A DNA stretch of 64,000 nt, from contig JAFYWN010000007.1 of the NCBI GenBank assembly GCA_017558005.1, positions 9,374 to 73,373 of the forward strand, written 5' to 3'. Below, piece after piece: positions 5,875 to 48,004 of this stretch (within the stretch, counting starts at the first letter, position 1; each line of letters opens with the position of its first letter). Below the pieces are notes generated by a model. The model made no database searches. It was not told the DNA's origin and worked only from the letters and a program-made list of their open reading frames with translations. Origin of the DNA: Kiritimatiellia bacterium (lineage in GTDB: Bacteria; Verrucomicrobiota; Kiritimatiellia; RFP12; DVOR01). Position numbers and translations under genes: made by a program.

Positions 5875-6268
5875 AAACCTGCGTAAGGAAAATTTGAAGG
5901 GATTGAAGGGATAAAAGCGATAAGAGCGATAGAAGGGATGATGTGGGGACGCCGCCGCCCCACTCCTCTGTGAGAGCGCAGCTTATCGTAGCCCCTGCCC
6001 ACCGCGGCAGAGGTGAGTCCTGCACGCTACGCATCCTAGCGGATGCTTTTACTGGTGCTCTCGAGGAGGAAAGAGAGGAAGCTCCGAGGTGCGGCGGAGG
6101 CCGAAGAGCGCTTCGCAGGGGGGGGTCACGGGGAGGTGTGGCTGCGCGTAATGTACGGATAACACCGCTTGATTTTTTCGCATGGACGCATTTTTTGAAT
6201 GCGCAGTTATTGGCAAGTTTGGTATGATATTTATGTTTAATTTATTACAATTAAAGTAAGGAACGATT

Positions 6269-7441
6269 ATGAAGTTGCTGAATCAAACTGTTACAGCCAT
6301 CGCCCCTTCTGCGACACTTGCAATTACAAGCAAGGCTGCCGAACTTAAAGCCCAGGGTATCCAGGTCTGCGCATTTGCCGCAGGTGAGCCCGATTTTAAC
6401 ACTCCCGATTGCATTAAAAACGCTTGTGAAGCGGCATTAGACGAACACAAAACGCGTTATGTCGCCGCTGCTGGTTTGCCGGAATTACGTACGGCACTCA
6501 GCGAAAAGCTCCAGGCCGAAAATGGTGTGAGCTACGAACCCTCTCAGATTTTGGTTGCCAATGGTGGTAAACATGCCTTAGCACAGGTCTTCCAGACGTT
6601 GATTAATCCGGGTGACGAGGTGATCATTCCTGCGCCATTCTGGTTGTCCTACCCCGAAATGGTGCGCGTGGCGGGTGGTGTGCCGGTCTTTGTGAAGACT
6701 TCGGTTGAAGACGGCTTCTTGATGAGCCCCGAACAACTCGAGGCCGCCATCACGCCCAAGACTGTGGCCGTGGTGATGAATTCTCCCTCCAACCCCACCG
6801 GCATGATGTACACGCCCGAACAGCTCCGTGCAATCGGCGAAGTGGCGATCAAGCATGATATTTGGGTGGTCTCCGACGAAATTTACGAAAAGATGGTCTA
6901 TGGCGGCGTGGAACAGGCTTCCATTGCAGCCTTTGGTCCTGAATTTTATGACCACACCATCACGGTGAACGGCTTCTCCAAGACCTTCGCAATGACCGGT
7001 TGGCGCCTGGGTTATGCCGCAGGTCCAAAGCCCTTTATGAAGGCGCTTTTTGCTCTCCAGAGCCACTTAGCATCCGCACCGAACACCTTTGCACAGTGGG
7101 GCGCAATTGCCGCACTGAAGGAAGCAGGTCCTGATGTTGCAACGATGGTGAAGGCATTCGCTGAACGTCGCGAACGCATCTACGCCTTGATGTCGGCGAT
7201 TCCTGGCGTAAAGTGCCCGAAGCCGGAAGGCGCTTTCTATGTCTTCCCTGACATCTCCTCCTTCGGCATGACCTCGCTTGAGTTCGCTCAGCGCCTCTTG
7301 GAAGAACACCATGTGGCCGTGGTGCCTGGTATTGCATTCGGCGACGACACCTGCGTCCGCTTGAGCTATGCCTGCTCGATGGACAACATTGAAGAAGGTA
7401 TGCGTCGCTTCACGGCATTCTGTGCTTCTTTGAAGAAATAA
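6269..7441 (+). CDS. Class-I (fold type I) aminotransferase, aspartate aminotransferase-like.
   Basis: The motifs NSPSNPTGMMYT and FSKTFAMTGWRLGY (the PLP-lysine region) are typical of AspC/AAT-like enzymes. An AAGGA RBS lies 7 nt upstream. Confidence 0.85.
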   Translation: MKLLNQTVTAIAPSATLAITSKAAELKAQGIQVCAFAAGEPDFNTPDCIKNACEAALDEHKTRYVAAAGLPELRTALSEKLQAENGVSYEPSQILVANGGKHALAQVFQTLINPGDEVIIPAPFWLSYPEMVRVAGGVPVFVKTSVEDGFLMSPEQLEAAITPKTVAVVMNSPSNPTGMMYTPEQLRAIGEVAIKHDIWVVSDEIYEKMVYGGVEQASIAAFGPEFYDHTITVNGFSKTFAMTGWRLGYAAGPKPFMKALFALQSHLASAPNTFAQWGAIAALKEAGPDVATMVKAFAERRERIYALMSAIPGVKCPKPEGAFYVFPDISSFGMTSLEFAQRLLEEHHVAVVPGIAFGDDTCVRLSYACSMDNIEEGMRRFTAFCASLKK

Positions 7442-24881: not shown

Positions 24882-25123
24882 CGCTCTGACTCCTTCTCGC
24901 TTCTCTTTAATAACCAAAAAAGCGCAGGCTTCCGCCCACGCTTCTACTTCAAAATAGAAAACTGGGGCGCATTATAGACGTATTCCCCCGAACTTGTCAA
25001 GTATTTTCACACGTTATCCCCTTAAAATTAGGTAAATAGCGATTTTTGGGCAAGTTTTTTGGGGTTAAGGTGCCTTTTAATAGGAAATCTGCTATAATTT
25101 CAGTGTTAACACAAGGATATATC

Positions 25124-26023
25124 ATGCGTTTTAGAATTTCCGTTCCCGCAACAAGCGCCAACGTCGGGCCTGGTTTTGACGTCATGGGGCTTGCGTTTGA
25201 CATGTATAATCGTTTTACATTCAATACCGATTGCCCCGAAAAGTTACAGATTGAAGGATGTATGCCTGAATTTGCGGTGGCAGAAAATAATCTGCTGTAC
25301 ATGACGCTCTCTCAGGTTTTGGCGCAACATGGCCGATTGGTTCCGAATCTTCACATTACCTTTGACACCGACTTGCCGGTTTGCTCTGGCTTGGGTTCAA
25401 GCTCCACGTGTATTGTGGCTGGCGTAATGGCGGCCAATATCATCGGGAATCTCTCGATGGACACAGAGCAGATTTTGCGCACGGCGACGCAGATTGAAGG
25501 CCACCCCGATAACGTGGCACCTGCCATCTTAGGCGGATTTGTTGCCGCTATCGTTGAGGATGGCCTTGTTTACTGGCATCGCTATCCGATTAGTGATCGC
25601 GTAAGTTTCTACGCAATTATGCCCGAAGTTCGCGTCCCCACCGAAGCGGCTCGTGCCGCACTTCCGAAGACCTACACGCTGACGGATTGTATTTACAACC
25701 TCTCACGTGTGCCGATCTTGGTTGAAGGCTTGGAACGCGCCGACCCTCGTTTAATCCGTGCTGGATGCAAGGACCGAATCCACCAAGAGTATCGCTTACA
25801 ATTGATCCCCCAGGGCGAAGATGTCATGCGCTTCGTGACTGAAGAAACGGATGCTGTTGCCGTCTACATCTCTGGTGCGGGCCCGACGATTGTTGCGGTC
25901 GTCATTGATGATGACGATGCCTTCTTGAAGCAGATTAATCGTTTCACTTCAAATCTGACTCTTAAATGGAACACGCGTAAGATGCATCTCCAACGTCAAG
26001 GTGCACACGTTCGTCTCCTTTGA
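25124..26023 (+). CDS. thrB: Homoserine kinase.
   Basis: GHMP-kinase motifs match ThrB (PATSANVGPGFD, LPVCSGLGSSS, HPDNVAPAILGG). An AAGGA RBS is present. Confidence 0.85.
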   Translation: MRFRISVPATSANVGPGFDVMGLAFDMYNRFTFNTDCPEKLQIEGCMPEFAVAENNLLYMTLSQVLAQHGRLVPNLHITFDTDLPVCSGLGSSSTCIVAGVMAANIIGNLSMDTEQILRTATQIEGHPDNVAPAILGGFVAAIVEDGLVYWHRYPISDRVSFYAIMPEVRVPTEAARAALPKTYTLTDCIYNLSRVPILVEGLERADPRLIRAGCKDRIHQEYRLQLIPQGEDVMRFVTEETDAVAVYISGAGPTIVAVVIDDDDAFLKQINRFTSNLTLKWNTRKMHLQRQGAHVRLL

Positions 26024-27183
26024 GTTCATCACCTATGGCACGGGTCCTTTACCTCTATTCTCAAGTCCTCCGCGCAGATAGCCCACATGCGCGGCGAACC
26101 TTCCAAATGCTCGCCTTACTAAAGGAGGCGGGATTTAAGGCAGATTTGCTCACGCTGCCTGGAGGGGACCCGTGGCCAACTGGTCTTGCCGAACACATCT
26201 ACGTCACCTCGCGTGTCCCCTTAACGCGCACGCTTCAACCTTACGGCATTGGCTTTAGGCGCATTTGGGCTACCGTGGTGATGGCTTTGACTACGGTGCG
26301 GCTCTTTTTGCAACATCGTTACGAGATTGTACACTGCTCCGACCGTGCCATTCGAATCGGCGGCTTGATTGCTTGGCTATTCGGCACACGCTTTGTCTTT
26401 GAATGGCGCAGTGCATCTGGGCATGACTTAATCCGTTGGGCGCGTTGGCGCACACGTCGTTTTCGCAACTCGGTCAGCCTTGTCATCACGGATACGACCT
26501 ACTCGGTGACGCAATTGCGCAATTCTGGGCTATATGGCAAGATTGCCTCCATTCAGGCGTTGCCCAATCCCTCTCTAACGCCTCTCCCGCCTCCCGCAAT
26601 TCGTACAGCTCCCTCCACGCGTCAATTTCGTATCACGGCGTTTTCTTACAATGACAAATTGACCGACTTATCGTTGTTCTGTGACGCACTTCCATTACTT
26701 TTACGCCACCCCAATATCCGCATTACCTTTGTGGGGGGCACCGCAGCAACGATTGAACGTTTACGCCAACGCCTAATTCACCGCTTCCCCAATGCCTCAA
26801 GTTCGCTCATCTTCCGCCCCAAGTCGGTTGACATTCCTGATTTTGTGGATAGCATTACAGAGGCTGACCTCGTCTTTTTACCTGTTTGTTCTGGCATTAC
26901 GCCCCCGCCCCTCCTCTTGGATACGATGGCTTGTGGGCGTGCGATTATGGCAACCCGTTGCCCTGCGTATAAGGCATTGCTGACGCCTCAAAATGCAGCT
27001 TTAGTGGGTGCCGATGTCGCAGAGATTGCAGACTGCATCCGCTACCATTTAACGGCCTCCACGCGCTGTGCCGAACTCGCCCGCTTGGCGGCTGAGACTG
27101 TGGCGAAAGAACGCAATCCCGCATCCGCCATTTCCGCATTACGCAGTTGCTACACCTTCATCCTTTTGGAGCCTCGCGAATGA
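26020..27183 (+). CDS. GT-B fold glycosyltransferase (group-1-like).
   Basis: Its start overlaps the thrB stop (ATGA). The C-terminal half has a GT4-like nucleotide-sugar-binding region (LLLDTMACGRAIMATRCPAY). Confidence 0.55.
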   Translation: MSSSPMARVLYLYSQVLRADSPHARRTFQMLALLKEAGFKADLLTLPGGDPWPTGLAEHIYVTSRVPLTRTLQPYGIGFRRIWATVVMALTTVRLFLQHRYEIVHCSDRAIRIGGLIAWLFGTRFVFEWRSASGHDLIRWARWRTRRFRNSVSLVITDTTYSVTQLRNSGLYGKIASIQALPNPSLTPLPPPAIRTAPSTRQFRITAFSYNDKLTDLSLFCDALPLLLRHPNIRITFVGGTAATIERLRQRLIHRFPNASSSLIFRPKSVDIPDFVDSITEADLVFLPVCSGITPPPLLLDTMACGRAIMATRCPAYKALLTPQNAALVGADVAEIADCIRYHLTASTRCAELARLAAETVAKERNPASAISALRSCYTFILLEPRE

Positions 27184-28658
27184 GTTCTGCGCCACGCATT
27201 GCCCTTTTTACTGACAGTGCACCGCAGCTCTTAGCGCGAGAATTGCAGGCGCAGGCACAAGCTTTCGGCGGCATTCAATTACAAACCTACGCCTTTACCT
27301 CTCCGCTTGCTGTCCAGGAGGAATTAACCGCATTTGCGCCCGATGTGGTCATTGTGTGGTTATGCGCTGAAGCGGTAAATGACGTCTGCCCCGAACTCCC
27401 CGAAGCGCTCTTCTCTCTCCCCTACACCTTTATTGTTAGCACCATGGTGTCACGTGATGACGGCACCTGCGGAAGTGCAGCGTTAACGTGGCACCATAGC
27501 CTCAAACGGCGCATCTTGCAATGGAACTCGCGCCTGATGCAGTTGGCGGAATCGCACAACAATCTCCATCTCGTTGACCTGGATGCCATTCAATCGCGCC
27601 TTGGCCGCACGACAACCTTTGACCCTAGACTCTGGGAGGCGGCCTCCATTGCCCTTACCCCAAAGGCGACCGAGCTCTTTGCAAAGGCAATCTTGCAGAC
27701 CATCGCCGCGCTTCGGGGGTCCATTAAAAAAGTCGTCGTAACAGACTTGGATAATACGTTTTGGGGTGGTATCACTGGCGAGAGCGGCGCAGATGCCGTC
27801 AATCCTGACGCGCCAGGTCATCCTGCTTACCGCGCATGGTTGCGTACACTGGCCAAACGAGGCATCTTGCTCGCCATTGCGTCACACAATGATCGTCCAG
27901 CGGTTGAGGCGCTCTTTCAGACCCATCCGCTCGGCTTCACATTAGATGATTTTCAGGCTTGCGAAATCAATTGGGATCCCAAGGCTCAAATGCTGACGCG
28001 TATTGCGGCGGCATTGAATGTCAGTACCGATGCGCTCGTTTTTATTGATGACCGTAAAGAGCAACGCGAACAAGTGCGTGCCGCCCTTCCTGAGGTCACC
28101 GTTCCAGAGATGCCAAGTGACCCTGCCAACTGGATTGAGTTCCTTGCCGCAGAAAATCTCTTTGAAATTCCACAGATTACTGAAGATGACACGCTTCGTG
28201 TGCAGACGTTTAAAGATGCCACGTTGCGCGCCTCTATGGCAGAAACGCTCTCGCGTGAGGCCTACATTGCCTCTTTAGAGCAAACCCTTATCGCCGAACC
28301 GCTCAACGCCACCAACTGCGAACGTGCCGCGCAATTAACGCAACGGTGCAATCGTTTTAACATGCGTGGCACGCGTCATACTGCCGCTGATTTAGCCCAT
28401 CGCACGGGCTGGGTCTATCGTTTGCGTGATCGATTTGGCGAGATGGGCATCATCAGCGCAGTCATCTTGGAGGGGGATATCATTGAAACCTGGGTGATGA
28501 GTTGCCGCGTATTCAATCGTGATGTGGAGCGTCTCATCCTTGAACACTTAAAAGGCGTCGCCCCCATCCGCGGGGACTATGTGCCCACCGAACGCAATAC
28601 CCTTTGCGCATCCATCTACCAAACGTATGGCATCCCCCCTGCCACTCCCACCCTTTAA
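27180..28658 (+). CDS. FkbH-like protein (HAD-IIIC phosphatase-type, glyceryl-ACP synthase family).
   Basis: The HAD motif I VVVTDLDNTFWGG is characteristic of FkbH/HAD-IIIC. The start ATGA overlaps the GT stop. Confidence 0.75.
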   Translation: MSSAPRIALFTDSAPQLLARELQAQAQAFGGIQLQTYAFTSPLAVQEELTAFAPDVVIVWLCAEAVNDVCPELPEALFSLPYTFIVSTMVSRDDGTCGSAALTWHHSLKRRILQWNSRLMQLAESHNNLHLVDLDAIQSRLGRTTTFDPRLWEAASIALTPKATELFAKAILQTIAALRGSIKKVVVTDLDNTFWGGITGESGADAVNPDAPGHPAYRAWLRTLAKRGILLAIASHNDRPAVEALFQTHPLGFTLDDFQACEINWDPKAQMLTRIAAALNVSTDALVFIDDRKEQREQVRAALPEVTVPEMPSDPANWIEFLAAENLFEIPQITEDDTLRVQTFKDATLRASMAETLSREAYIASLEQTLIAEPLNATNCERAAQLTQRCNRFNMRGTRHTAADLAHRTGWVYRLRDRFGEMGIISAVILEGDIIETWVMSCRVFNRDVERLILEHLKGVAPIRGDYVPTERNTLCASIYQTYGIPPATPTL

Positions 28659-28675
28659 CCTTAAATGGCCCCTCT

Positions 28676-28903
28676 ATGATTGCAGCCTTACGTACCGTTT
28701 TTGAAGAAGTGTTACGCCAGCCGATGCCTGAATTGACGAGCGAGACGGCCTTCGCGGATTTGCCGGGCTGGGACTCTGTTACGCATTTGGCGTTGCTCCT
28801 CGCTGTTGAACGCCACTTTAATATTGCCTTTACCTCTGCTCAAATGGTCAATATGAAGCAGGTCGGCGAAATGGTTGCCGCACTGGAGGGTGCCAATGGT
28901 TGA
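28676..28903 (+). CDS. Acyl carrier protein (discrete).
   Basis: It is about 75 aa with the phosphopantetheine attachment motif GWDSVTHL. Confidence 0.75.
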   Translation: MIAALRTVFEEVLRQPMPELTSETAFADLPGWDSVTHLALLLAVERHFNIAFTSAQMVNMKQVGEMVAALEGANG

Positions 28904-29873
28904 GCGGTTTACTGGTCTTACCTTAAAAGCGCTCGCGTGTGCACTCCCTGCACAAACGCGTGACCTTACGGAATTTGAAGCTCGCTTCGGTAAGGAAAAG
29001 GTTGAGCGGTTCCGTGAAGTGGTCGGCATCCACCGTTACCACGAGGCGCCCCTTGAAACAAAGACCTCCGATTTGGCCGTAGCCGCCGCAGAAAATCTCT
29101 TCGCTTCGGGCACAGTCCAACGTGAAGAGATTGACGCCTTACTCTTCATTACACAAACGCCTGATGCCATCGCCCCCGCGACCTCTGCGCTCTTACAAGC
29201 GCGCCTCCATCTCCCCGAAAGGCTCTTGGCGCTTGATATCAATCAAGGGTGCGCAGGTTTCTTAACGGGTCTCTTAACTGCGGCGCATCTATTGGCTTCC
29301 CCAACGATTCGTAATGTCTTAGTACTGGGTGGTGACACCCTCACTCGATGCGTTGATCAAACGGATCCTGCCACTGCTATGCTCTTTGGAGATGCAGGGT
29401 TTGCGGCGATTTTTGGTCGTGATTCGCAGGCAGACACATGGCACATCGCAAATGGGGTTAGCTCATCTGAGGCGATTACGATTCCACATGGTAAACCCTT
29501 TGCAATGTCGGGAACAGAGGTCTTTAATTTTACAATTACCAAGGTACCCGAACAAATCCAAGCAGTCTTACAGGCAGCCAACCTCTCCGCCGAAAACCTT
29601 GATTGGCTTTTACTGCATCAGGCTAACGCATTTATTGTGCGCCAAGTCGCGCGTATGTGTCGCTTGCCCGAGGAAAAGGTCCCCTGTCGCATTGCAAATC
29701 GTGGCAATACCTCTGTTGCAAGCCTCCCGCTTCTCCTATGTGATTTGAAAGCAGAAGGCATTTCTGGTAAGCAACGCGTCGTACTATCGGCATTTGGCGT
29801 AGGTCTCACTTGGGTAACCGTGGCGCTCACGCTTGATTTTGACGTTTGCCAACCGCCCCTTTTGCTCCCCTAA
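28896..29873 (+). CDS. FabH-like 3-oxoacyl-ACP synthase III (KAS III).
   Basis: The active-site Cys block INQGCAGFLTGL and a thiolase fold are present. Its start overlaps the ACP stop by 8 nt. Confidence 0.8.
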   Translation: MVERFTGLTLKALACALPAQTRDLTEFEARFGKEKVERFREVVGIHRYHEAPLETKTSDLAVAAAENLFASGTVQREEIDALLFITQTPDAIAPATSALLQARLHLPERLLALDINQGCAGFLTGLLTAAHLLASPTIRNVLVLGGDTLTRCVDQTDPATAMLFGDAGFAAIFGRDSQADTWHIANGVSSSEAITIPHGKPFAMSGTEVFNFTITKVPEQIQAVLQAANLSAENLDWLLLHQANAFIVRQVARMCRLPEEKVPCRIANRGNTSVASLPLLLCDLKAEGISGKQRVVLSAFGVGLTWVTVALTLDFDVCQPPLLLP

Positions 29874-29914
29874 GTTTCCAATATCGCCCCCTGCTCTTTT
29901 GAAAGAAGGCGCAC

Positions 29915-30139
29915 ATGACTCAATCTGAAATTCTTGAAGAACTTGCCGACATCCTTGGCGCCACCCCAGGCTCGCTGACCCCTGAAACACGCCTTGATGC
30001 GGAGGGGATTCGTTGGGATTCAATGGCTCTCCTCGCCTACCTTGCCTTCTTACGATTTCACTTCGGAAAGACGCGTTCGGGCATTTCATGCGCCGCATTC
30101 ACAACGGTTGCCGATCTTTTAGCTGAAATTCAGCCATAA
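29915..30139 (+). CDS. Second acyl carrier protein.
   Basis: It is 74 aa with a GIRWDSMALL phosphopantetheine-site motif. Confidence 0.7.
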   Translation: MTQSEILEELADILGATPGSLTPETRLDAEGIRWDSMALLAYLAFLRFHFGKTRSGISCAAFTTVADLLAEIQP

Positions 30140-30162
30140 TCCTTTTTCCATTAAACAAACAA

Positions 30163-30194
30163 AAGCCACCGTTCTTCGGTGGCTTTTCTTGTTT
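30163..30194. terminator. Bidirectional rho-independent terminator between the ACP operon and nadK.
   Basis: The stem AGCCACCG/CGGTGGCT has loop TTCTT. It is followed by TTTCTTGTTT on the plus strand and TTTTGTTTGTTT on the minus strand. Confidence 0.6.
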
Positions 30195-30210: not shown

Positions 30211-31089
30211 TTAACGCACAAAGGCAGCGCCCCAGCGCAGTTTCCGTGAAAGTGGCAGATAGGGATTTCCATTCTCTGGAAGCATAATCTTGACGGGGTG
30301 TGGCGAACGTGTCACTTCCACACGGTCTGCCGCACTCACAATCGCTTGACGAATTCCATCTGCGTACACCGCAGCGGATGCGGTCTCATCATCAATGCGT
30401 AAGGTCACCCGCGTGGTATCGGGCACAACGAGTGGACGTGCGCTCAACGTGTGCGGTGCGATGACGTTAATGACCGTCACATTCGCCGAGGGCACCACCA
30501 CTGGCCCACCCACAGAAAGTGAATACGCCGTACTCCCCGTGGGCGTCGAAAGGATGACCCCATCGCAGATCCACCGCGCCACAGGGCATCCATCCAGTTC
30601 GAGACAGACGGCAATCGCACTGCCCCCTTCTGCCCGTGAGAGCACCACGTCATTTAAGGCTTCGGGCGTAACCGCGACCGCACCCGTCGGCCGACGAATG
30701 ACTGAGGATAATGTTGTCCGCGCTTCCAAGGCATATTTTCCTGCCGCGAGATCGGCCAACATTTGCCCAAAGCCCTCTTCGTTGACCGCCGTCAAATAGC
30801 CCAAATGACCGATATTTAATCCAATCAGAGGCAAAGATGCACCCGCGAGTGCATGGGAGGCGGCGAGGAAGGAGCCATCGCCGCCCAAAGAAATCACCCC
30901 TTGTGCGCCATTTGCCGAAAAATCCCCGATATCACAGGGTTGGATTTCGTCAGAAATGGCGGCCGTCTCTGGGGGAGCAAGTAAGGTGACACCTGCTTCA
31001 CGTGCAGCCGTTAGCAAGGCTTCCAATCCCTCACGCACATGAGGGCGAGTGAAGTTAACCAAAAGTCCAAGTCGCGAAACAGGTGTCAT
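30211..31089 (-). CDS. nadK: NAD+ kinase.
   Basis: The GGDGS motif is present, with the NAD kinase fold conserved blocks (VISLGGDGSFL and NDVVLSR). Confidence 0.85.
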   Translation of the reverse strand: MTPVSRLGLLVNFTRPHVREGLEALLTAAREAGVTLLAPPETAAISDEIQPCDIGDFSANGAQGVISLGGDGSFLAASHALAGASLPLIGLNIGHLGYLTAVNEEGFGQMLADLAAGKYALEARTTLSSVIRRPTGAVAVTPEALNDVVLSRAEGGSAIAVCLELDGCPVARWICDGVILSTPTGSTAYSLSVGGPVVVPSANVTVINVIAPHTLSARPLVVPDTTRVTLRIDDETASAAVYADGIRQAIVSAADRVEVTRSPHPVKIMLPENGNPYLPLSRKLRWGAAFVR

Positions 31090-34191: not shown

Positions 34192-34803
34192 TTAGCCGAT
34201 GATGACTCGACGTCCCTCAATGCGCAAACGCCCCGCTGCGAGATGACGGAGGGCTTCTGGGAAGGCGATGTGCTCCTGCACTTGAATGCGCGCATGGAGC
34301 GTCTCAGGGGTGTCCCCCTCCTCCACAGGCACGCACTTCTGCACAATAATCGGTCCGCTATCGGTGCCCGCATCCACAAAGTGTACCGTGCATCCCGCCA
34401 CCTTTGTGCCATAATCAAGTGCTTGCTTCCAAGAGTGCAAGCCTGGGAAGGCTGGCAAAAGTGCAGGATGGATGTTTAAGACGCGATTGGGGAAGGCAGC
34501 CAAAAGGCCTGGCTTCACAATACGCATAAAGCCTGCGAGCACCACGGTGTCTGCGCCTGCTTCCTTCATAATGCGAATGTATTCTTGTTCGGCTTCGCCA
34601 TCCAGCTTCGTCTTAAACGGTGCGCAGGAGACATAGCGTCCCGGCAAACCGTGCTTGGCCGCGCGCTCAAGAATCTTCGCATCTGGCACGTCTGCCAAGA
34701 CGCACACAATTTCTGCATCCAAAGTTCCAGCTTCAATCGCGTCCACGATGGACTGCATATTGCTTCCAGAACCAGAACCCAATACTGCAAGCTTCAATTT
34801 CAC
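34192..34803 (-). CDS. purN: Phosphoribosylglycinamide formyltransferase PurN.
   Basis: The motifs LAVLGSGSGSNMQ and NIHPALLP are present. A GTG start has a GGAGG RBS 7 nt upstream. The start overlaps the cmk stop (GTGA). Confidence 0.85.
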   Translation of the reverse strand: MKLKLAVLGSGSGSNMQSIVDAIEAGTLDAEIVCVLADVPDAKILERAAKHGLPGRYVSCAPFKTKLDGEAEQEYIRIMKEAGADTVVLAGFMRIVKPGLLAAFPNRVLNIHPALLPAFPGLHSWKQALDYGTKVAGCTVHFVDAGTDSGPIIVQKCVPVEEGDTPETLHARIQVQEHIAFPEALRHLAAGRLRIEGRRVIIG

Positions 34804-35519
34804 TTTGTTTCCTCCGTGGTTGCAGCCGGGGTCTTCCAATCTTCAGGCAGTGCATCAATCACGGTCTGCACCACTTGTTCCAACGTCAAATAGGTCGAAT
34901 CAATCGCCACCACGCCATCTGCCTTACGCAGCGGAGCGCATGCACGCGAAGAGTCAATGCGGTCACGTGCCAAAAGCGATTCCTTCACCGCTTCCACGTC
35001 CTGATTGGCGATACCCTTCTGCACTTCTTCGAGTTGGCGACGGGCCGCACGCACCGCCGGATCTGCTTCGAGGTAGAAACGTGCAGGCGAGTCTGGGAAG
35101 ACGGCCGTGGTAATATCGCGACCTTCGATAATCAGATTGCCAAAACGGGTGAGGCTGCGAAGTCCTGCGGTAATCTTTTCACGCACAGCAGGCACCGTTG
35201 CCACAGGAGAGGCATGGGCATTAATGCGCGGTTCACGCAGTTCCTTGTCGGGGCGAATTCCACCCACTTCATAGACCACGCGACCATCTTCTGCCTTACA
35301 GTCGATTGCCAAATCCTTGGCCAAAGCGGCCACGGCTTCTGGATTAGCCGTATCCACGCCCTGCTCCAAGCACTGCCACGTCACAATGCGATACAGAGCA
35401 CCAGAGTCAACGTGAAGGTAACCCAAACGGCGGCCCACCTCCTTGGATACGGAGGATTTACCGGCACCACTGGGGCCATCAATAGCGATTACGCGTGCGG
35501 AAGGATTTTCTGTTGTCAT
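34800..35519 (-). CDS. cmk: Cytidylate kinase domain, in frame with ftsH with no stop between.
   Basis: The P-loop IAIDGPSGAGKSS and a cmk-like remainder are present. It is preceded in the same frame by ...[12 protein letters not shown] with no intervening stop. Confidence 0.8.
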   Translation of the reverse strand: MTTENPSARVIAIDGPSGAGKSSVSKEVGRRLGYLHVDSGALYRIVTWQCLEQGVDTANPEAVAALAKDLAIDCKAEDGRVVYEVGGIRPDKELREPRINAHASPVATVPAVREKITAGLRSLTRFGNLIIEGRDITTAVFPDSPARFYLEADPAVRAARRQLEEVQKGIANQDVEAVKESLLARDRIDSSRACAPLRKADGVVAIDSTYLTLEQVVQTVIDALPEDWKTPAATTEETK

Positions 35520-37529
35520 AGTCTGCTGCTCCTCTTCTGCCGAAAGACGCTTCACTTCAGGCTTGATTCCCGTTTGAATCAAACGCTCCACGTCGCGACC
35601 GTCGGCGGTTTCCACTTCTAAAAGATACTCAACTAAAAGTTCAAGTTTGTCACGATTCGCGCCAATGATTTCCTCACCACGGCGATATGCTGCTTCCACG
35701 AGCTGCGTCACTTCTTCATCAATTGCGCGCGCAGTGGCTTCGGAGTGATCCTGTTTGCGACCAATTTCTCGACCGAGATAGATCTGCTCTTCGTTATCCC
35801 CGAAGGCTTGGAAGCCAAATCGTTCGCTCATGCCATAGGCGCAGACCATCTGACGAGCCAGGCGGGTCGCCATCTTAATGTCTTGCGATGCACCAGTCGA
35901 GCGTTCGCCCGTAAAATACTTTTCGGCGATACGCCCGGCCGTCAAGACCACGAGCATATCCTTCATTTCATTCTCAGTGCGATTCAAAACGTCTCGCTCA
36001 GGCAGGGTCATCGTTGCACCCAGTGCGCGACCACGCGGGATGATTGTCACTTTGTGCAAGGGTTCCGTGTGCTCCAAAAGCACCTGCGCCAAGGCATGAC
36101 CACCTTCATGCCACGCCGTAATGCGGCGATCCTTATCGGCCATCGTGTGCGAACGACGTTCACGGCCCCACAGGACCTTGTCGCGCGCCTCTTCTAAGTC
36201 GGCATGAGTCACCTTTGTGCGACGAGCACGTGCCGCCAATAGTGCCGCTTCATTCAGCAAGTTGGCGAGGTCTGCACCAGAAAAACCTGGCGTACCGCGC
36301 GCAACGCGTTCCAAATCCACGTCTTCGCCCAACTTCACCTTATCGGCGTGCACCTTCAAAATCGCCACACGCCCCTCGACCGTGGGCAAGTCAACGACAA
36401 TCTGGCGGTCGAAACGGCCCGGGCGCGTCAATGCGGGGTCAAGCACGTCCACACGGTTGGTCGCTGCCATGACAATCACGCCACTATTGCCCTCAAAGCC
36501 ATCCATCTCCACGAGCATCGCATTCAACGTCTGTTCGCGTTCGTCATGCCCACCGCCGATGCCGGTAAAGCGCGTACGGCCAATCGCATCAATTTCGTCA
36601 ATGAAGAGGATACACGGCGCATTCTTCTTGGCCTGATCAAACATGTCGCGCACGCGGCTCGCGCCGACGCCCACAAACATTTCCACAAAGTCAGAACCCG
36701 AAATGGAGAAGAAAGGCACCTCTGCTTCACCTGCGATTGCCTTCGCGAGCAACGTCTTACCCGTGCCAGGAGGCCCCATCAAGAGAACACCTTTCGGCAC
36801 CTTACCACCCACCGCTTCAAAGCGCGCAGGCTCCTTCAAGAAATCAACAATTTCCTGCACCTCTTCCTTCGCCTCATCCACGCCAGCGACGTCCTTGAAG
36901 CGAATCTTCGCATCTTCCTTGTTCATCATCTTGGCGCGTGATTTACCAAAGGCAAAGGGGCCATCATTGCCACCGCCCATTCTGCGCATGAAGAGCACGT
37001 AAAAGAGCACAAAGAAGAGAATGATTGGCAGAAGCGAAACCATAATCGGTCCCCACCAACTGCGATTATTCTCTTGAATCGTGCGCACACCAGCCTGCGC
37101 CAAACGCGTCTCGAGCCCTTCAGTGTCAAGCAGATTCAGCTTAAAGGATTCACCCTGTGCCTTCGGGTCAACTTGCGCGCCGTCCGCAGTAGGCTTGGGC
37201 AACCACTGCCCTTGCAAAAAGGTCTCATCTTCTCCTTCTCGGATTAACTTCACCTCTGCAAGTGCCGCATTTCCCTTCACGCCCCCTGCTTCATCTTTGA
37301 CGACACCCGCCTCAACGCGTTGCCAGAAATCCAACTGCGAAAGCGGGGCCTCCGCTTTACTCAGGTTTAATCCCTCGCCACCGCCATTGAACAAGGCAAT
37401 CAAAGAGAAGATAAAGACCGCCAAAAGAACCCACACCATCACAGGTGCGCGCCAATGGGGTTTCTTATCCTTGTTATCGGGGGTATTCTCTTTTTTTCCG
37501 GGATTCGGCTTCTTTTCGTCTTTCGACAT
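35520..37529 (-). CDS. ftsH: ATP-dependent zinc metalloprotease FtsH, fused read-through into cmk.
   Basis: It has two N-terminal TM segments, AAA+ motifs (GPPGTGKT, the DEIDA Walker B, the second region of homology) and the HEGGH zinc motif. Start at MSKDEKK has a GAGGAG RBS. Confidence 0.9.
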
Positions 37530-37530
37530 C

Positions 37531-38466
37531 TTAGCTCCTCTGAACTTCGCGTCCCTTTTCCTGCGAGACGAGAATTTCAAACATTTGATCATTTTGCTTC
37601 TTACAGGCACCCAAAATCAACCCCACGCCATAGGAAAGCAAACCCGCCATGGCGAGGAAGCCGGAGAAGTTCAACGTCGGCTGACGCGGCACTTCGCCGA
37701 TCTTAAAGTATTCAATCAACACCGGCACAAACAATGCCATTGCGCAGAGCAATAACACCGTACCGACGACTCCAAAGAAGAACTCCGGACGATAAAAACG
37801 GAAGAGATTGAAAATCGTCTTCAGTACGCGAATACCATCGCTCACAGTGTTCAACTTCGAGACACTGCCCTCAGGACGATCGCGATACTGCACCGGCACT
37901 TCAATCAAGCTCATACGCTTATCAATCGTGTGCAGCGTCATCTCGGTTTCAATCTCAAAGCCCTGCGCCAAAACTGGGCAACTCTTCACGAAGAGACGGC
38001 TAAATGCACGATAACCCGTCATCACGTCATTCACACGCTGGCCCCACAAAAGGCGAATCAACGTGCAGACCAACGTATTCCCGAAATTATGTCCAGGGCG
38101 CTTATTCTCCTGCATGTACGTTGACGAGAGACGGTCACCATTGACCATATCCGCCTCGCCATCAAGGACAGGCTTAATCAACTTATGCACCTCATCTGCC
38201 GGATAAGTGTCATCAGAGTCCACCATCACATAGACATCTGCATCCACCTCCTGGAACATACGACGCACCACATGGCCCTTACCCTGTTGCGGCACGCGAC
38301 GAACGAATGCACCTGCAGCCTGAGCCAAGTCCGCAGACCCGTCAGAACTGTTATTGTCATAAACCCAAATATCCGCATCCGGCAACTCCGCGCGAAAATC
38401 CCGCACCACCTTCTCAATCGTCAAGGCTTCATTGTAACAAGGCAACAATACGGCGACCTTTGGCAT
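37531..38466 (-). CDS. GT2-family glycosyltransferase (dolichyl-phosphate mannosyltransferase-like).
   Basis: The N-terminal blocks VAVLLPCYNE and VYDNNSSDGS, the DSDD motif and C-terminal TM helices are present. An AGGAGG RBS precedes MPKVAV. Confidence 0.8.
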   Translation of the reverse strand: MPKVAVLLPCYNEALTIEKVVRDFRAELPDADIWVYDNNSSDGSADLAQAAGAFVRRVPQQGKGHVVRRMFQEVDADVYVMVDSDDTYPADEVHKLIKPVLDGEADMVNGDRLSSTYMQENKRPGHNFGNTLVCTLIRLLWGQRVNDVMTGYRAFSRLFVKSCPVLAQGFEIETEMTLHTIDKRMSLIEVPVQYRDRPEGSVSKLNTVSDGIRVLKTIFNLFRFYRPEFFFGVVGTVLLLCAMALFVPVLIEYFKIGEVPRQPTLNFSGFLAMAGLLSYGVGLILGACKKQNDQMFEILVSQEKGREVQRS

Positions 38467-39919: not shown

Positions 39920-40227
39920 ACCCAAACCAAAGGATTCCTTTGAAAAAAGGCAACCAATGATGGCGGGAAGCATATCAAAAGAATGGTAAAAGTGAAGCCA
40001 GAATTTTAAAAATTATTGCCTTTGAGTAATTACGGCAATGAGTTGTGATTTTTCCATAAAAAACCGATGCACCTATTAATTAATGTAAGAAACCCTCTTT
40101 CGGTTATGGGATAATTTTGATAGAATACTTTACTGTAAGGCTTGCAGAAAATGGCTTGCATTTTAGAGGCTATTTTGCCTGCAAAATGAGTGAATTTTGA
40201 GAGGGAGCATGCGAAAACGCATGTAGG

Positions 40228-41214
40228 TTGATGACTGAGATTAAAGAGTTTCATTTATTTGCAGGTATTGGTGGCGGGATTTATGGTGGTGAATTATTAG
40301 GCCACAAATGCTGTGCAGGTGTTGAAATCATGCCATATGCACAAAAAGTACTCAAGCAACGTCAAGAGGATGGTTGGTTGCCTAAATTCCCGATTTATGG
40401 TGACTTGTGTGTATTGGATGGAACGCCGTTTAAAGGTAAATTTGACATCCTTTGTGGCGGTTTCCCGTGTCAGGCGTTTAGTACTGCAGCACATGGGAAA
40501 AATATCGCGGCAAAGAATCTTTGGGGTGAAATGCTCCGTTTTGTAAAAGAGTCCGATGCTCCAATTGTATTTGGTGAAAATGTTGTTTTACGTGCAATTG
40601 AACAAGCAAAAGTTGACTTAGAAGCGATTGGTTACAAGGTTGAGCGTATTCGTTTGAGTTGTTCTGATATTGGTGCTGACCATCAACGTAACCGTTTTTG
40701 GGTACTGGCAGTAAAAGATTATGCTGTTTTTGAAAAAATTGCAGCCCATTTGAAACAATTGCCGAAGTTGACTGGTGATTGTTGGACGAAGAGTCCTTCT
40801 GAGACGGGTGCCCCTGTTGAAGTGAAGGTGGGTGACCGCCGAGATCAATTACTTGGTGTCGGTAATGCACAGTCTCCGTTTGTTGCAGCTACAGCATTTC
40901 GTATCTTGGTGAATCGCCATTTGAATCATATAGATAGGCGGTCTGAACTCGTCTCGGCTAAAGAATTGGATGCAGTGTTTGAGAAGCGTGAGACGTGGAT
41001 TCAGAAGACGTTTAATAACATTGGACTTGTACATACTCCGACAACAATGGCTAATTATGCATGTCCTTCAATGATGAAACATCAAGGGTGTCGTAATTTT
41101 ACTGTTGTTTTTGGGCGTCCACAACCTGAAAATGCCGAATACTTAATGGGCTTTCCTTTAGGCGCGAGTTCGCCAAATCCATTGCCTATAACAAACTTCA
41201 AGCGTTGGAGATGA
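40228..41214 (+). CDS. DNA (cytosine-5)-methyltransferase.
   Basis: The m5C MTase motifs are present: I (LFAGIGG), IV (GFPCQAFS), VI (ENV) and VIII (QRNRFW). The protein is 328 aa. Confidence 0.85.
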   Translation: MMTEIKEFHLFAGIGGGIYGGELLGHKCCAGVEIMPYAQKVLKQRQEDGWLPKFPIYGDLCVLDGTPFKGKFDILCGGFPCQAFSTAAHGKNIAAKNLWGEMLRFVKESDAPIVFGENVVLRAIEQAKVDLEAIGYKVERIRLSCSDIGADHQRNRFWVLAVKDYAVFEKIAAHLKQLPKLTGDCWTKSPSETGAPVEVKVGDRRDQLLGVGNAQSPFVAATAFRILVNRHLNHIDRRSELVSAKELDAVFEKRETWIQKTFNNIGLVHTPTTMANYACPSMMKHQGCRNFTVVFGRPQPENAEYLMGFPLGASSPNPLPITNFKRWR

Positions 41215-41561
41215 TTATGAGTGCAGGTCGGATTTTAGAGTCATTGGGTAAAAGGCGTATGAAGCCTTGGACTTATCCAAATTCATATGCAATCATTAAA
41301 CCCGCGAGTTTAATGGCTGAGCAATCAACAAATAGAGATTCGGCTTCTTGGAAAAAAGCTGAGTATATCGTAATTGATGAAGTTCAGTATGGCCAGGGGA
41401 AACACCTAATTCCTGCATGGTGTTATTTCACTGCGGCTGATCCAGATGGTGCGGCAGGCTTTCAAAAGTTGTTGATTAACATTGGCGGTGGCCAATATGC
41501 TATGTATGACAATATGGGGTGTGGTCCCAAAATCGGTACTTTACGTGAATTGGTAAAGTAA
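41205..41561 (+). CDS. Small protein paralogous to the N-terminal domain of the downstream McrB-like protein.
   Basis: WKKAEYIVIDEVQ and AADPDGAAGFQKLLINIGGGQYAMYDN align to WRTAEYIVVDEFNQ and DADPDKHHKIQKMLIRTGNNQYDLYNH of the next ORF. Its start overlaps the MTase stop. Confidence 0.6.
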   Translation: MEMIMSAGRILESLGKRRMKPWTYPNSYAIIKPASLMAEQSTNRDSASWKKAEYIVIDEVQYGQGKHLIPAWCYFTAADPDGAAGFQKLLINIGGGQYAMYDNMGCGPKIGTLRELVK

Positions 41562-41601
41562 TAGAAGTCGTTTGCTTACTTTTAAGGGAAGGAATAACAC
41601 G

Positions 41602-43962
41602 ATGGGGCGCGGTGGAAAGGCAAAAATTAGTGCAGCCGTTTGTGAAATGTTTGAACGGCTTGGAATTAAACGATTAGAGGCTTGGACACATTCAAACTCT
41701 TTTTCTGGGGCAACAATTTCTAATTTTACGTCACCGGATAACCAAAATCGTGCTAATCGCGGTCAATCAAATTGGAGAACCGCAGAGTATATTGTAGTTG
41801 ATGAGTTTAACCAAGAGAGCGAAGAGATTGATCAGAGCGAAGAGATTGATCTTTCTATATGGAAAGAGATTACGGATGCTGACCCTGACAAACATCATAA
41901 AATTCAAAAAATGTTAATTCGTACAGGTAATAATCAGTATGATTTGTATAATCATGATGCGAATAAAATTGCGTCAGGAAGTTTAGAAGAAATTGAGAAC
42001 TTTATACGAATAAACAATACACAATTACAATCAAAACAATTAGTGGTTCAAGACCGCTTATTGGTTGCTTTACAGTTGTTTACAACGAAACGTGGTTCGT
42101 ATCAATTTAACCCTGTGTTACCTAACGAAGAGGTTACTGCAGAAAATTATTCTTACGAACATCTTGATAATTGGAAGGCCTTTTGCACGGAAGTGCAGGA
42201 GTCTCCATCGGATATTTCGGTTTGTTTCGCATCCAAGGTGGTCAAAGACCTTGGGATGCTCCCATCACTTCTAACACGTTTTTTAGTTCGTTTGGCGCCT
42301 TCAGTCTACGCTGCATGTTCAGAGCATACGGCAGAGGCATTGTATTTTCTTGAGTTGACGAAAACGAAGGTGTTACCTGAGGATTTGACAGCTGATGCGT
42401 ATGAGTCTTCTAAGGCAGTGCAGACGCAGATTCGTGATAAGATGCGTAAGATGAAGATTCTTTCTCAAGAGGGAAAAGAGGCGAATTATCTCACACTAGC
42501 AGAGTTTTTGTGGTTTGTTAATGACAACAAGGATTTGATCGAGGGTAAAGTTATGGAAAAGCAAATTAAGTCGGTTAATAAAACTAAGGTTAAAGAAGAT
42601 TCTCGCAAAGAGAAGCGTTTGAAGTGTAAGACTGCGGACGATGTTTTGATTTTCCGTTTAATGGCAACATTGCGCACGAAGCCTTTTGCCATTCTTGCGG
42701 GGCACTCGGGTACGGGTAAGAGCCGTTTGGTGCGTAAGTTGGCATACATGACGTGTAATGTGGAAGAACTTCAGAATACAGAGAAGAATTCCCCAGAGAA
42801 CTTTTGCATGGTGCAGGTGAAGCCGAATTGGCATGACTCTATGGATTTATTGGGGTATCGCAGTGCATTTGAAGATAAAAGTTATGTGACGACGGATGTG
42901 GTGAAGTTTATTTGTAAAGCGTATGCCTATCCTGAAACACCCTTTTTCCTTTGCTTAGATGAGATGAATCTTGCACCTGTTGAGCAATACTTTGCTGAAT
43001 TCTTAAGTGCGATGGAGTCGTTGCGAGAACTTAAAAGTTCTGACGAGGAGACATCTTCTGACGAGGAGACATCTTCTGACGAGAAGACATCTTCTGACGA
43101 GAAGACATCTTCTGACGAGGAGACATCTTCTGACGAGAAGATGTCTTACACCTCGGATACGCTTTTTACGTTGACTGACGATGAATTAAAGTCTCAAAGT
43201 AAGTTGTTTGATTTAGGGTGTGAAACCGGTGTGGGGCAAACGTATTTGACGAAACGTGGCGGTGTGACGATTCCAAAGAATCTCTTTGTCGTTGGCACTG
43301 TGAATATGGATGAAACCACATGCCAATTCTCTCGTAAGGTGCTTGACCGTGCGATGACGATTGAAATGACGGATGTAAACTTTGCCAATTTCGGCAAAGT
43401 GGCCGATCCAAGTTTTACGGACCTGCTTGCAGAAGAGATTGTTCAACTTTTGCTCAATGGAGACATTAAGGTTGAAAGCCTTGATACCGAGGATGTTGCT
43501 ACTGACTCAAAACTGTGTAAGCTTCAGCAACGTTTAGCGAAGACCTCTTTTGCGATTGCATATCGTTTTGCGAAGGAATACACGTTGTTTAAGAGAGCTA
43601 TTGAGGAATTTAAAAAACATATTTCAGGATCCCCTCAAAAATCTGAGGATGAATCTTCAGAAGTTGCTGAGACACCTGAAGACTCCAAGCCTTCAGAGGC
43701 CTCAAATTCTGGAATGCGTGAGACTGTGGACAACTTAGATGCCTTAGATCAAATGGTCTTAATGAAAGTGTTGCCACGTATTATGGGGAGAACTGAAGAC
43801 GTTAAGGCAATATTCACAGGGGTGCGCGATTTTAATCCTGAGGGTTCAAAAGAGCCTATGTCGGATTCACTTTTAGGCATTTTTGGGAAAACGTCTGAGT
43901 CAGGCAAGAAGATGATTGAGATTATGGAGCGAGGTGGCTCACATTTGACTTTTTGGCCGTAA
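41602..43962 (+). CDS. McrB-like AAA+ GTPase with a variable N-terminal domain and an acidic tandem-repeat insertion.
   Basis: The Walker A ILAGHSGTGKSRL and Walker B FFLCLDEMNL are present. McrB-like blocks NWHDSMDLLGY and VVGTVNMDETT are present. A GGAAGGA RBS precedes MGRGG. Confidence 0.7.
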   Translation: MGRGGKAKISAAVCEMFERLGIKRLEAWTHSNSFSGATISNFTSPDNQNRANRGQSNWRTAEYIVVDEFNQESEEIDQSEEIDLSIWKEITDADPDKHHKIQKMLIRTGNNQYDLYNHDANKIASGSLEEIENFIRINNTQLQSKQLVVQDRLLVALQLFTTKRGSYQFNPVLPNEEVTAENYSYEHLDNWKAFCTEVQESPSDISVCFASKVVKDLGMLPSLLTRFLVRLAPSVYAACSEHTAEALYFLELTKTKVLPEDLTADAYESSKAVQTQIRDKMRKMKILSQEGKEANYLTLAEFLWFVNDNKDLIEGKVMEKQIKSVNKTKVKEDSRKEKRLKCKTADDVLIFRLMATLRTKPFAILAGHSGTGKSRLVRKLAYMTCNVEELQNTEKNSPENFCMVQVKPNWHDSMDLLGYRSAFEDKSYVTTDVVKFICKAYAYPETPFFLCLDEMNLAPVEQYFAEFLSAMESLRELKSSDEETSSDEETSSDEKTSSDEKTSSDEETSSDEKMSYTSDTLFTLTDDELKSQSKLFDLGCETGVGQTYLTKRGGVTIPKNLFVVGTVNMDETTCQFSRKVLDRAMTIEMTDVNFANFGKVADPSFTDLLAEEIVQLLLNGDIKVESLDTEDVATDSKLCKLQQRLAKTSFAIAYRFAKEYTLFKRAIEEFKKHISGSPQKSEDESSEVAETPEDSKPSEASNSGMRETVDNLDALDQMVLMKVLPRIMGRTEDVKAIFTGVRDFNPEGSKEPMSDSLLGIFGKTSESGKKMIEIMERGGSHLTFWP
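43036..43146 (+). repeat. Six 18-bp tandem repeats encoding (SSDEET/SSDEKT)n inside the McrB-like gene.
   Basis: The direct nucleotide repeat TCTTCTGACGAGGAGACA occurs 6 times with G/A variation. Confidence 0.8.
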
Positions 43963-46224: not shown

Positions 46225-46374
46225 TTTTAAAATGGTTTGACATGAGGTAAGGTATTTGCTTTATTTAAGTTAATGGTTAATCATTGAAGAAGTAGCATTT
46301 AGGGTAACGGTTGAGCTGCAAGCAAAGTAATAAAACTTTTTGCAACGATTGAGTTTACATTTTAGGAGATAAAC

Positions 46375-47985: not shown

Positions 47986-48004
47986 TGCCTAAGGGAATAG
48001 TGTT

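Follow-up and report, generated by a model that had tools for sequence, protein, structure and literature searches.

Research on FkbH-type glyceryl-acyl carrier protein (ACP) synthases has dealt almost exclusively with their role in supplying polyketide antibiotics with building blocks. Modules that combine FkbH, ACPs and a KAS III (β-ketoacyl-ACP synthase III) outside polyketide synthesis are known but poorly characterised, and a product has been defined only in a correlative case, that of Campylobacter jejuni. We analysed a 64,000-nucleotide stretch of contig JAFYWN010000007.1 from a Kiritimatiellia bacterium (the window), which carries at 25124-30139 an operon encoding homoserine kinase (thrB), a glycosyltransferase (GT), an FkbH-family enzyme, a first ACP (ACP1), a KAS III and a second ACP (ACP2). 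We tentatively propose that this operon contains a lineage-specific 'glyceryl-ACP plus KAS III' module that is independent of any polyketide synthase (PKS) and whose glyceryl unit, condensed or transferred, joins a glycoconjugate or glycoside. As judged from sequence, the module shares ancestry with the acyl modules of surface-glycan loci that depend on carrier proteins, and it is joined here to a clade-specific GT and thrB. In our searches, FkbH often had ACP partners in surface-glycan loci, in some cases along with a KAS III of a distinct subfamily. The operon is the smallest self-contained version that we found, with five genes and neither a PKS nor a reductase, and it is fixed in an uncultured gut lineage of the Planctomycetes-Verrucomicrobia-Chlamydiae (PVC) group.

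Among the nearest described systems is the tetronate 'glycerate-utilisation operon', which has five genes, three of them encoding FkbH, a dedicated ACP and a FabH homologue (PMC7489565). The pathway architecture described for tetronates (PMC9324945, PMC7489565) agrees with two Streptomyces plasmid clusters of the RK-682 type, which contain genes for a fatty-acyl-AMP ligase (FAAL), an acyl-CoA dehydrogenase (ACAD), an ACP, a PKS, a FabH-like protein, FkbH (642-645 aa), a further ACP and a phosphopantetheinyl transferase (PPTase). The Streptomyces plasmid FkbH matches H15 and H19 are PKS-linked ACP-FkbH pairs lacking a FabH homologue and were left out as tetronate references. Like the tetronate operons (RkD/RkE/RkF; Mad7/8/16/17/18; NvlD/E/F), the Kiritimatiellia operon encodes a glyceryl-S-ACP synthase of FkbH-like type, in which DxDxT and SCR are both present, along with a free-standing ACP and a FabH homologue. 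However, its FabH homologue is of another lineage and keeps the triad His that the RK-682-like enzymes have lost, and the N-terminal domain of its FkbH resembles that of FkbH proteins from glycan contexts rather than that of RkE-like proteins. It also lacks a PKS, a FAAL-ACAD supply of β-ketoacyl groups and an Agg4/Agg5-like pair, whereas it has an extra ACP, a GT4-like gene and thrB.

The methoxymalonyl-ACP pathway (FkbG/H/I/J/K; Mad11-15) shares the first step, in which FkbH and an ACP make glyceryl-ACP (PMC7489565), but its two dehydrogenases and O-methyltransferase are absent from our block and its flanks, and the window contains no PKS. Sets of genes for a membrane-bound O-acyltransferase (MBOAT), an ACP and FkbH, as on the Sinorhizobium meliloti megaplasmid, likewise place an FkbH-ACP pair in a context that resembles polysaccharide decoration rather than polyketide synthesis. 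Transfer in those sets is presumably carried out by the membrane MBOAT, whereas the Kiritimatiellia operon has a KAS III and a second ACP and no MBOAT. The S. meliloti set (L092, 815-5849) consists of genes for an MBOAT, a protein annotated as a 'TonB-dependent receptor', an ACP and a 628-aa FkbH, and, with FkbH as its loader, it is similar to carrier-protein-dependent O-acylation of the Dlt type.

In the flagellar glycosylation locus of C. jejuni, a strain without the FkbH-domain gene cj1302 also lacked pseudaminic acid (Pse) modified with dimethylglyceric acid (PMC7099621), the modification being 5-(2,3-di-O-methylglyceroyl)amino-Pse (PMC3068675). These were the only two reports we found that tie an FkbH-domain gene to a glyceroyl sugar; our literature search returned no characterised glycan system with FkbH, KAS III and ACP, and nothing specific to such an operon in work on Kiritimatiellia biosynthetic gene clusters. 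The C. jejuni case resembles the present operon in having an FkbH-domain gene outside a PKS context and a glycan product with a glyceric-acid-derived acyl group, a likeness of gene context rather than of compared sequences (cj1302, cj1303). The C. jejuni locus, by contrast, contains methyltransferase, epimerase, Pse/legionaminic acid and maf genes and is phase-variable and strain-specific, whereas the operon studied here has one GT, is fixed in its clade and lies among housekeeping genes. Presumably the C. jejuni locus also contains fabH2 and two acpP paralogues, which would make its four components those of the present module. We know of no carrier-protein-dependent acyl module from a glycan locus that has been biochemically characterised or reconstituted.

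Relationship to acyl modules of surface-glycan loci

Six co-directional open reading frames on the + strand fill 25124-30139. Searches against Pfam and NCBIfam bore out all six gene identities proposed in the original prediction, which had read the block as a tetronate- or butenolide-type cassette. The features are as follows.

24918-25123, no strand: divergent intergenic region between nusA (-) and thrB (+), by its position the presumed promoter region of the operon
25124-26023, + strand: thrB, homoserine kinase, 299 aa (TIGR00191, 239 bits, cutoff 168)
26035-27183, + strand: GT4-like glycosyltransferase of GT-B type, 382 aa (Glyco_trans_4_4 and Glyco_trans_1_4; alternative start TTG at 26020)
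27180-28658, + strand: FkbH-family enzyme, 492 aa (TIGR01686, 226 bits, cutoff 147; PF21211 FkbH_N; DLDNTFWGG at residues 189-197)
28676-28903, + strand: ACP1, 75 aa, presumed glyceryl carrier (PP-binding, 1.4e-7)
28896-29873, + strand: KAS III, 325 aa, with a FabH-type triad, 'GVG' subfamily (ACP_syn_III and ACP_syn_III_C)
29915-30139, + strand: ACP2, 74 aa, an atypical carrier, presumed to carry the extender or product of the KAS III (weak PP-binding match, 0.0096)
30161-30187, no strand: bidirectional intrinsic terminator, common to the convergent NAD kinase gene at 30211-31089 on the - strand (hairpin and T-runs)

Residues C119, H241 and N271 of the KAS III align with C112, H244 and N274 of Escherichia coli FabH. 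This triad is kept in all orthologues and in the outgroup relatives, and the FabH motif HQAN is retained, with GVG in place of the E. coli GGG305-307. None of the E. coli residues that bind CoA (W32, R36 and R151) or dock AcpP (R249) is conserved, the corresponding positions holding R, V/A, a variable residue and F, respectively; the absence of the CoA-binding residues fits an ACP-bound primer. Phe87, which caps the FabH pocket, is an invariant Ala in the KAS III of this clade. Relatives with 31-40% identity have most of the same residue features.

The protein scored below the cutoffs of the FabH families (NF006829, 217.6 vs 249; TIGR00747, 181 vs 292), and its best match in the PDB was 4efi (1.2e-51), with E. 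coli FabH at 3e-34. Its family score, its CoA- and AcpP-binding positions and its gene context, with no plsX, fabD, fabG or acpP near it within the window, all differ from those of a housekeeping FabH. The tetronate-type references, two closely related Streptomyces plasmid sequences (L089 and L090), matched it only at E values of 1e-7 to 1e-12, and both carry H244->P and N247->S. In a neighbour-joining tree rooted on this RkD-like pair, the topology of which is displayed without support values, the query orthologues formed one clade nested in the 'GVG' subfamily, with E. coli FabH next and the RkD-like pair far outside. The KAS III is predicted not to be a tetronate-type enzyme. It clusters with neither the tetronate enzymes nor ordinary FabH, whose family cutoffs it does not reach. 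A grouping with ordinary FabH had been named beforehand as an outcome that would speak against a tetronate cassette.

The closest non-orthologous relatives of the KAS III (38-40% identity) and its annotated relatives (33-36%) were found in glycan loci, where their neighbours are small ACPs, a loading enzyme and, in most cases, a ketoreductase. Locus L087 has the order GT2, GNAT, KASIII, ACP, KASIII, short-chain dehydrogenase/reductase (SDR) and DegT, and L088 has KASIII, ACP, SDR and GT2 with PMT_2, DegT and an epimerase nearby. On plasmid p3 of Azospirillum brasilense Sp7, a pseudaminic-acid/flagellin locus runs from pseI to ACP, acyl-CoA ligase, SDR, KASIII and flagellin, and a capsule-type locus of Parabacteroides distasonis contains, in order, acetyltransferase, peptidyl carrier protein, SDR, SDR, AMP-ligase, ACP, KASIII, GT4 and sugar transferase. 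In L050, from a termite-gut Firmicute, a KASIII-SDR-KASIII-FkbH-ACP set lies inside a complete surface-glycan locus with DegT, a Bac_transf phosphoglycosyl transferase, a PglD-like protein, a MurJ/Wzx flippase, GT4 and GT2. The pairing of these relatives with ketoreductases suggests that they really make β-keto groups.

In common with the Kiritimatiellia operon, these modules have a KAS III of the 'GVG/Phe249' subfamily (31-40% identity), small ACPs as its neighbours (among them an ACP2 homologue), a nearby GT4 and, in L050, FkbH as the loader. They differ in that their loader is usually an AMP-ligase (L050 excepted) and in that a ketoreductase and an acetyltransferase-family gene, both absent from our operon, are usual. 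They also usually come with nucleotide-sugar genes, a flippase and an initiating transferase, whereas our operon has a single GT4-like gene. By descent and by association, the KAS III, ACP2 and FkbH of the window appear to belong with the carrier-protein-dependent acyl modules of glycan loci. Among the products suggested in the original prediction, the one offered as an alternative, a glyceryl-derived glycolipid or polysaccharide modification, is the best fit to these homologue contexts.

The FkbH enzyme has the architecture of its family, with FkbH_N, a HAD-IIIC phosphatase domain and a C-terminal acyl-transfer domain that carries Cys442. In 21 sequences, including distant homologues of 31-39% identity, D189, D191, T193, S235, K268, D290 and C442 were invariant, and the full catalytic set (D189/D191/T193, S235, K268, D290/D291 and Cys442 within SCR, 441-443) was invariant or nearly so; the loss of catalytic residues that had been raised as a possible objection is thus not seen. 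The N-terminal portion of about 190 aa, earlier described as an extra domain, turned out to be ordinary: its roughly 180 residues are the normal FkbH_N of the family, here shorter than usual and common to distant FkbH homologues. The best PDB match was 3slr (BF1531 of Bacteroides fragilis, 3.6e-40). Proteins from gut Firmicutes and glycan loci aligned with FkbH over its full length (251-297 bits), whereas tetronate-type RkE-like proteins aligned only from residue 114 (194 bits); the DxDxT and SCR motifs are common to FkbH proteins whether their context is tetronate, PKS, MBOAT or glycan. In many distant loci (L031-L084), FkbH has an ACP homologue just 3' of it, and the distant homologues P0076 and P0110 occur in varied gene contexts.

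Both carriers retain the phosphopantetheine Ser. Ser34 of ACP1, in the sequence GWDS, and Ser36 of ACP2, in WDS, align with Ser36 of AcpP, and each is invariant, that of ACP2 in its orthologues. ACP2 is 53-100% identical across the clade and has an invariant 'SC' pair about 20 residues past the phosphopantetheine Ser (orthologues L001-L027). Its helix II contains no acidic residues (WDSMALLAYLAFLRF). Together with the Phe at the R249 position of the KAS III, this may represent a co-adapted, non-electrostatic docking interface. In the glycan-type locus L087, a homologue with 38% identity to ACP2 adjoins a related KAS III.

Compared with their counterparts in L005, which is from the same species, the six proteins show 96-100% identity. 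Beyond this pair, the identical six-gene order was present in at least 20 other species-level genomes, that is, at every orthologous locus with enough sequence, with the exception of one subclade. Apart from L005, which has the same flanks, only L006 shares any of them, and it does so only downstream; other orthologous loci adjoin different genes, for instance rpsO along with genes for type II secretion, or a locus for Cas12a. Conservation of the order amid such shuffled flanks indicates that the operon is more than a chance arrangement. Identity across orthologous blocks was 78-99% for thrB and, leaving L005 aside, 39-79% for the other five genes. In protein searches, identity fell from 48-97% within the orthologue group to no more than 37% outside it for FkbH, and from 49-98% to no more than 40% for the KAS III; for the GT, identity was 42-97% within the group and the word-based search returned nothing beyond it.

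The exceptional subclade carries the block in three pieces, thrB-GT, FkbH by itself and ACP1-ACP2-KASIII, with no part lost. There FkbH lies between pst genes and an RNase J-like gene (L026), the ACP1-ACP2-KASIII trio lies among cell-division genes (L093), and thrB and the GT are still adjacent (L094). Retention of all parts although they are unlinked speaks for a trait fixed in the lineage and against a secondary-metabolite cluster of patchy occurrence.

All records of orthologous loci are gut or faecal metagenome-assembled genomes. Their clade labels vary: most related records are labelled Kiritimatiellae or Kiritimatiellia, NCBI taxonomy places Candidatus Spyradenecus in Lentisphaeraceae, Lentisphaerota, and L023 is labelled 'Agathobacter rectalis', probably through a binning error. 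In L004 (FkbH identity 73%), a type V-A CRISPR-Cas system with Cas12a/Cpf1, Cas4, Cas1 and Cas2 lies at 1637-7281, directly 5' of the thrB block.

The glycosyltransferase and homoserine kinase

The word-based search gave 40 clusters of GT homologues, all in this clade, and a profile search gave 16 representatives at E<=1e-30 among 1.84 billion. Sequence comparison with the PDB returned nothing below E = 0.7. An AF2 model with a pLDDT of 90.5 was matched by Foldseek best to GlgM, MshA, BshA, sucrose-phosphate synthase and PimA (TM 0.65-0.70, identity 12-16%; E ~1e-14 for MshA, BshA and GlgM), confirming a GT-B fold. The named GT4 enzymes are of the retaining kind and act on small acceptors, or on lipids in the case of PimA; the fold comparison assigns the GT to GT4 in generic terms only. 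The GT shares their fold but has only 12-16% identity to them, belongs to a family essentially confined to this PVC lineage and has a degenerate EX7E motif, in which, on inspection, the first Glu is missing and an invariant D296 takes the place of the second. It also has a conserved Arg/Trp-rich segment at residues 132-146, which resembles the membrane-interacting regions of lipid-acting GT4 enzymes.

Distant homologues of the GT (206-283 bits) occur in another conserved operon (L099, 6412-10361; L102, 1604-5560), which encodes a pyridoxal-phosphate-dependent decarboxylase (Orn_DAP_Arg_deC), a 513-536-aa protein that no Pfam family matches, the GT and an alpha/alpha-toroid protein weakly similar to SQHop_cyclase_C/Prenyltrans. 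Both thrB and FkbH are absent from it. We considered whether the 536-aa protein 5' of these GT homologues was a cryptic FkbH and rejected this (E = 2.7).

The best PDB matches of the thrB product were all homoserine kinases (top match 1e-38), and the GHMP motif GLGSSS lies at residue 89. Most likely, thrB is a co-transcribed housekeeping passenger. A disguised pathway kinase was rejected as the main reading, given the equivalog-level score and the 78-99% conservation. The thrB-GT pairing persists in the split subclade, and the passenger reading leaves that pairing unaccounted for.

Proposed route and competing explanations

In the route we propose, FkbH would take 1,3-bisphosphoglycerate, its HAD domain would remove the 3-phosphate, and the glyceryl group would be held on Cys442 and passed to ACP1. 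By analogy with the established chemistry of the FkbH family, and because the motifs are intact, this loading step is quite probable. The KAS III would then load glyceryl from ACP1 on Cys119 and carry out a decarboxylative condensation with malonyl-ACP2 through its His and Asn, giving 4,5-dihydroxy-3-oxopentanoyl-ACP2; in a less favoured variant, it would simply transfer the glyceryl unit to an acceptor. The absence of CoA-binding residues, the ketoreductases adjoining its relatives and the retained His and Asn make condensation plausible, and we would give it only slightly less than an even chance. Finally, the GT4-like enzyme would join the hydroxy-acyl unit to a sugar, so that an envelope glycoconjugate would be decorated or a small glycoside formed. 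That a glycoconjugate or glycoside is involved is the weakest step, and we put it forward tentatively.

Several observations weigh against this route. The block has no nucleotide-sugar genes, no flippase or export gene, no initiating transferase, no ketoreductase and no separate N- or O-acyltransferase. The GT stays with thrB rather than with FkbH in the split subclade, its distant homologues sit in an unrelated operon lacking FkbH, and its degenerate EX7E motif makes even the donor chemistry uncertain. In C. jejuni, the dimethylglyceric-acid unit on Pse stays C3, which argues for transfer over condensation. Moreover, with no ketoreductase, a C5 β-keto-γ-hydroxy thioester should lactonise spontaneously, and this would suit a small molecule in free form better than it would a decorated glycan.

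The main alternative is direct glyceroyl transfer, in which the KAS III would act as an acyltransferase that moves the C3 glyceryl group from an ACP to a sugar or glycolipid, at an amino or hydroxyl position, as has been proposed for the 2,3-di-O-methylglyceroyl group on Pse in C. jejuni. The loss of cj1302 correlates with an absent glyceric-acid modification whose C3 unit is unextended, and with no separate acyltransferase in the block, the KAS III is the obvious candidate; KAS III-like acyltransferases, such as CerJ and ChlB6, do exist. Nevertheless, His241 and Asn271, the decarboxylation residues in FabH, are strictly conserved here, and the ketoreductases paired with the subfamily relatives imply real condensation. 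Direct transfer would also leave the second, highly conserved ACP without a role, and the part of fabH2 in the C. jejuni modification remains a presumption. On balance, we consider direct transfer unlikely.

It is more doubtful still that the operon is a mosaic in which thrB-GT, FkbH and ACP1-ACP2-KASIII are independent units merely co-transcribed in most clade members. The separate loci of these three units in one subclade, the distant GT homologues without FkbH or thrB and the clearly housekeeping nature of thrB would all suit a mosaic. However, FkbH needs a carrier, and the only ACPs travel with the KAS III. The GT, FkbH, the KAS III and both ACPs also have the same narrow distribution, with a sharp drop in similarity outside the clade; the GT/FkbH overlap ATGA recurs in the window, L001 and L004; and the order is kept in the at least 20 genomes despite shuffled flanks.

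We give a similarly small chance to a minimal, PKS-free tetronate, in which condensation by the KAS III, an enzyme of FabH rather than RkD type, would be followed by self-release as 5-hydroxymethyl-tetronic acid and glycosylation by the GT4-like enzyme. The product would be an unacylated, erythroascorbate-like C5 lactone made from 1,3-bisphosphoglycerate and malonate. The tetronate idea of the original prediction is weakened, but in chemical terms such a small unacylated tetronate would still result if glyceryl-ACP were condensed decarboxylatively with malonyl-ACP. If true, tetronate ring formation would have arisen a second time, independently and by convergence, as a fixed, core-like trait in a lineage of gut Kiritimatiellia.

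A classical acyl-tetronate or butenolide signal like RK-682 or agglomerin, in which the FabH-like enzyme would join glyceryl-ACP to a β-ketoacyl thioester from fatty-acid synthesis, is very improbable. The operon does have FkbH, a dedicated ACP and a FabH homologue, three of the five glycerate-utilisation genes (PMC7489565), and ACP2 could carry the β-ketoacyl partner. However, the KAS III is of FabH type, with HQAN where the two closely related RK-682-like references have H244->P/N247->S, and is far from them; RkE-like proteins do not align with the first part of FkbH, as glycan-context proteins do; and the block is a conserved, vertically inherited clade trait among housekeeping genes rather than a patchy gene cluster. 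Nor is there a source of β-ketoacyl groups. The earlier statement that no PKS is present holds for the whole 64-kb window, which contained no homologue of ketosynthase/acyltransferase (KS/AT), FabF, FabD, FabG, AcpP, AfsA or PPTase (KS/AT, FabF, FabD and FabG at E<=0.01; AfsA by tblastn with a related query) and no FAAL or ACAD. The Agg4/Agg5-like acyltransferase/dehydratase pair, which many but not all tetronate members have, was found neither in nor beside the block. None of the six proteins has an AfsA domain, and with the AfsA-related tblastn of the window empty, membership in the AfsA-type butenolide group fails. The discovery that the locus is a conserved LPS or capsule sugar-acylation cluster with a known product had also been named as evidence against a tetronate cassette; this locus has no known product.

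Glyceryl-primed fatty-acid synthesis, in which the KAS III would start from glyceryl-ACP, type II fatty-acid synthesis (FAS II) would elongate the chain and the GT would glycosylate vicinal-diol fatty acids to give a membrane glycolipid, would suit the intact FabH-type triad, the absence of any need for PKS or reductive genes, the invariant Ala in place of Phe87, the Arg/Trp-rich GT segment and the core-like conservation of the block, but it is just as improbable as the classical signal, since FAS II probably rejects intermediates on ACP2, whose non-acidic helix II is unlike that of AcpP, no data point specifically to long chains, and to our knowledge no diol-terminated glycolipid of this kind has been described.

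Modest as our confidence in the proposed glycoconjugate or glycoside route is, the operon is tractable for in-vitro reconstitution, which could settle whether this KAS III subfamily condenses or transfers acyl groups, and it could bring to light a small glycoside or envelope component that is new for gut Kiritimatiellia. Condensation by the KAS III would amount to a second, FabH-type route to tetronate-like rings; mere decoration of a glycan would be a modest extension of the known genetics of glycan acylation.

Operon boundaries and other features of the window

A compact operon closed by a bidirectional terminator had been predicted, and the tight gaps and the terminator hairpin agree with this. 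The terminator has a stem of 11 pairs with T-runs on both strands and a dG of -24.2 kcal/mol (z = -6.1), and 0/200 shuffles folded equally well. The stop codon of the GT gene overlaps the FkbH start as ATGA at 27180-27183, and the identical 4-nt overlap was called in L001 and L004. The ACP1 stop and KAS III start overlap as ATGGTTGA at 28896-28903, an overlap that is not conserved in L004, where the genes abut. These two of the three overlaps claimed earlier stand, whereas the third, between thrB and the GT gene at 26020-26023, requires a TTG start at 26020. Orthologue alignments and gene calls put the GT start at ATG 26035, 11 nt past the thrB stop, so that coupling of thrB and GT through an overlap is uncertain. 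The remaining gaps are 17 nt (FkbH-ACP1) and 41 nt (KAS III-ACP2).

Housekeeping genes make up the flanks: upstream, on the - strand, lie nusA-infB-rbfA-truB-ribF, and the downstream side has genes for NAD kinase, DUF386 and TPR proteins. Horizontal acquisition of the block was rejected on composition, its GC content (0.51-0.55) being equal to that of the flanks. A consensus scan found no sigma-70-like site on the + strand 5' of thrB, and the total number of sites did not exceed that in shuffled sequences. An Rfam scan of the operon and its leader returned no element, only chance matches to the terminator hairpin. On the opposite strand, facing nusA, a perfect sigma-70 sequence, TTGACA-18-TATAAT (12/12), lies at 25000-24971, and a terminator-like hairpin with a T-run at 24945-24918 immediately precedes the TTG start of nusA at 24917. 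The segment 25000-24918 (- strand) may be a leader or attenuator of the nusA-infB operon.

Elsewhere in the window, a 936-aa open reading frame at 34800-37610 (- strand) encodes a complete FtsH (AAA, AAA_lid_3 and Peptidase_M41, residues ~240-677) followed by a C-terminal cytidylate kinase (708-920), and represents either an unusual FtsH-Cmk fusion or a stop codon lost in assembly. A low-GC island (36-43% vs ~52% elsewhere) occupies ~40200-49700 on the + strand. Its products are a C-5 cytosine DNA methylase, an McrB-like AAA_5 protein, an McrC-like nuclease (DUF2357/PDDEXK_7) and two proteins without a Pfam match (536 and 561 aa), and it looks like an acquired restriction or defence island. 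It is followed by a gene for a 1153-aa SNF2 helicase (50079-53540, - strand). Finally, a gene at 58857-61787 (- strand) encodes a 976-aa eukaryotic-type Ser/Thr protein kinase with double zinc-ribbon domains.

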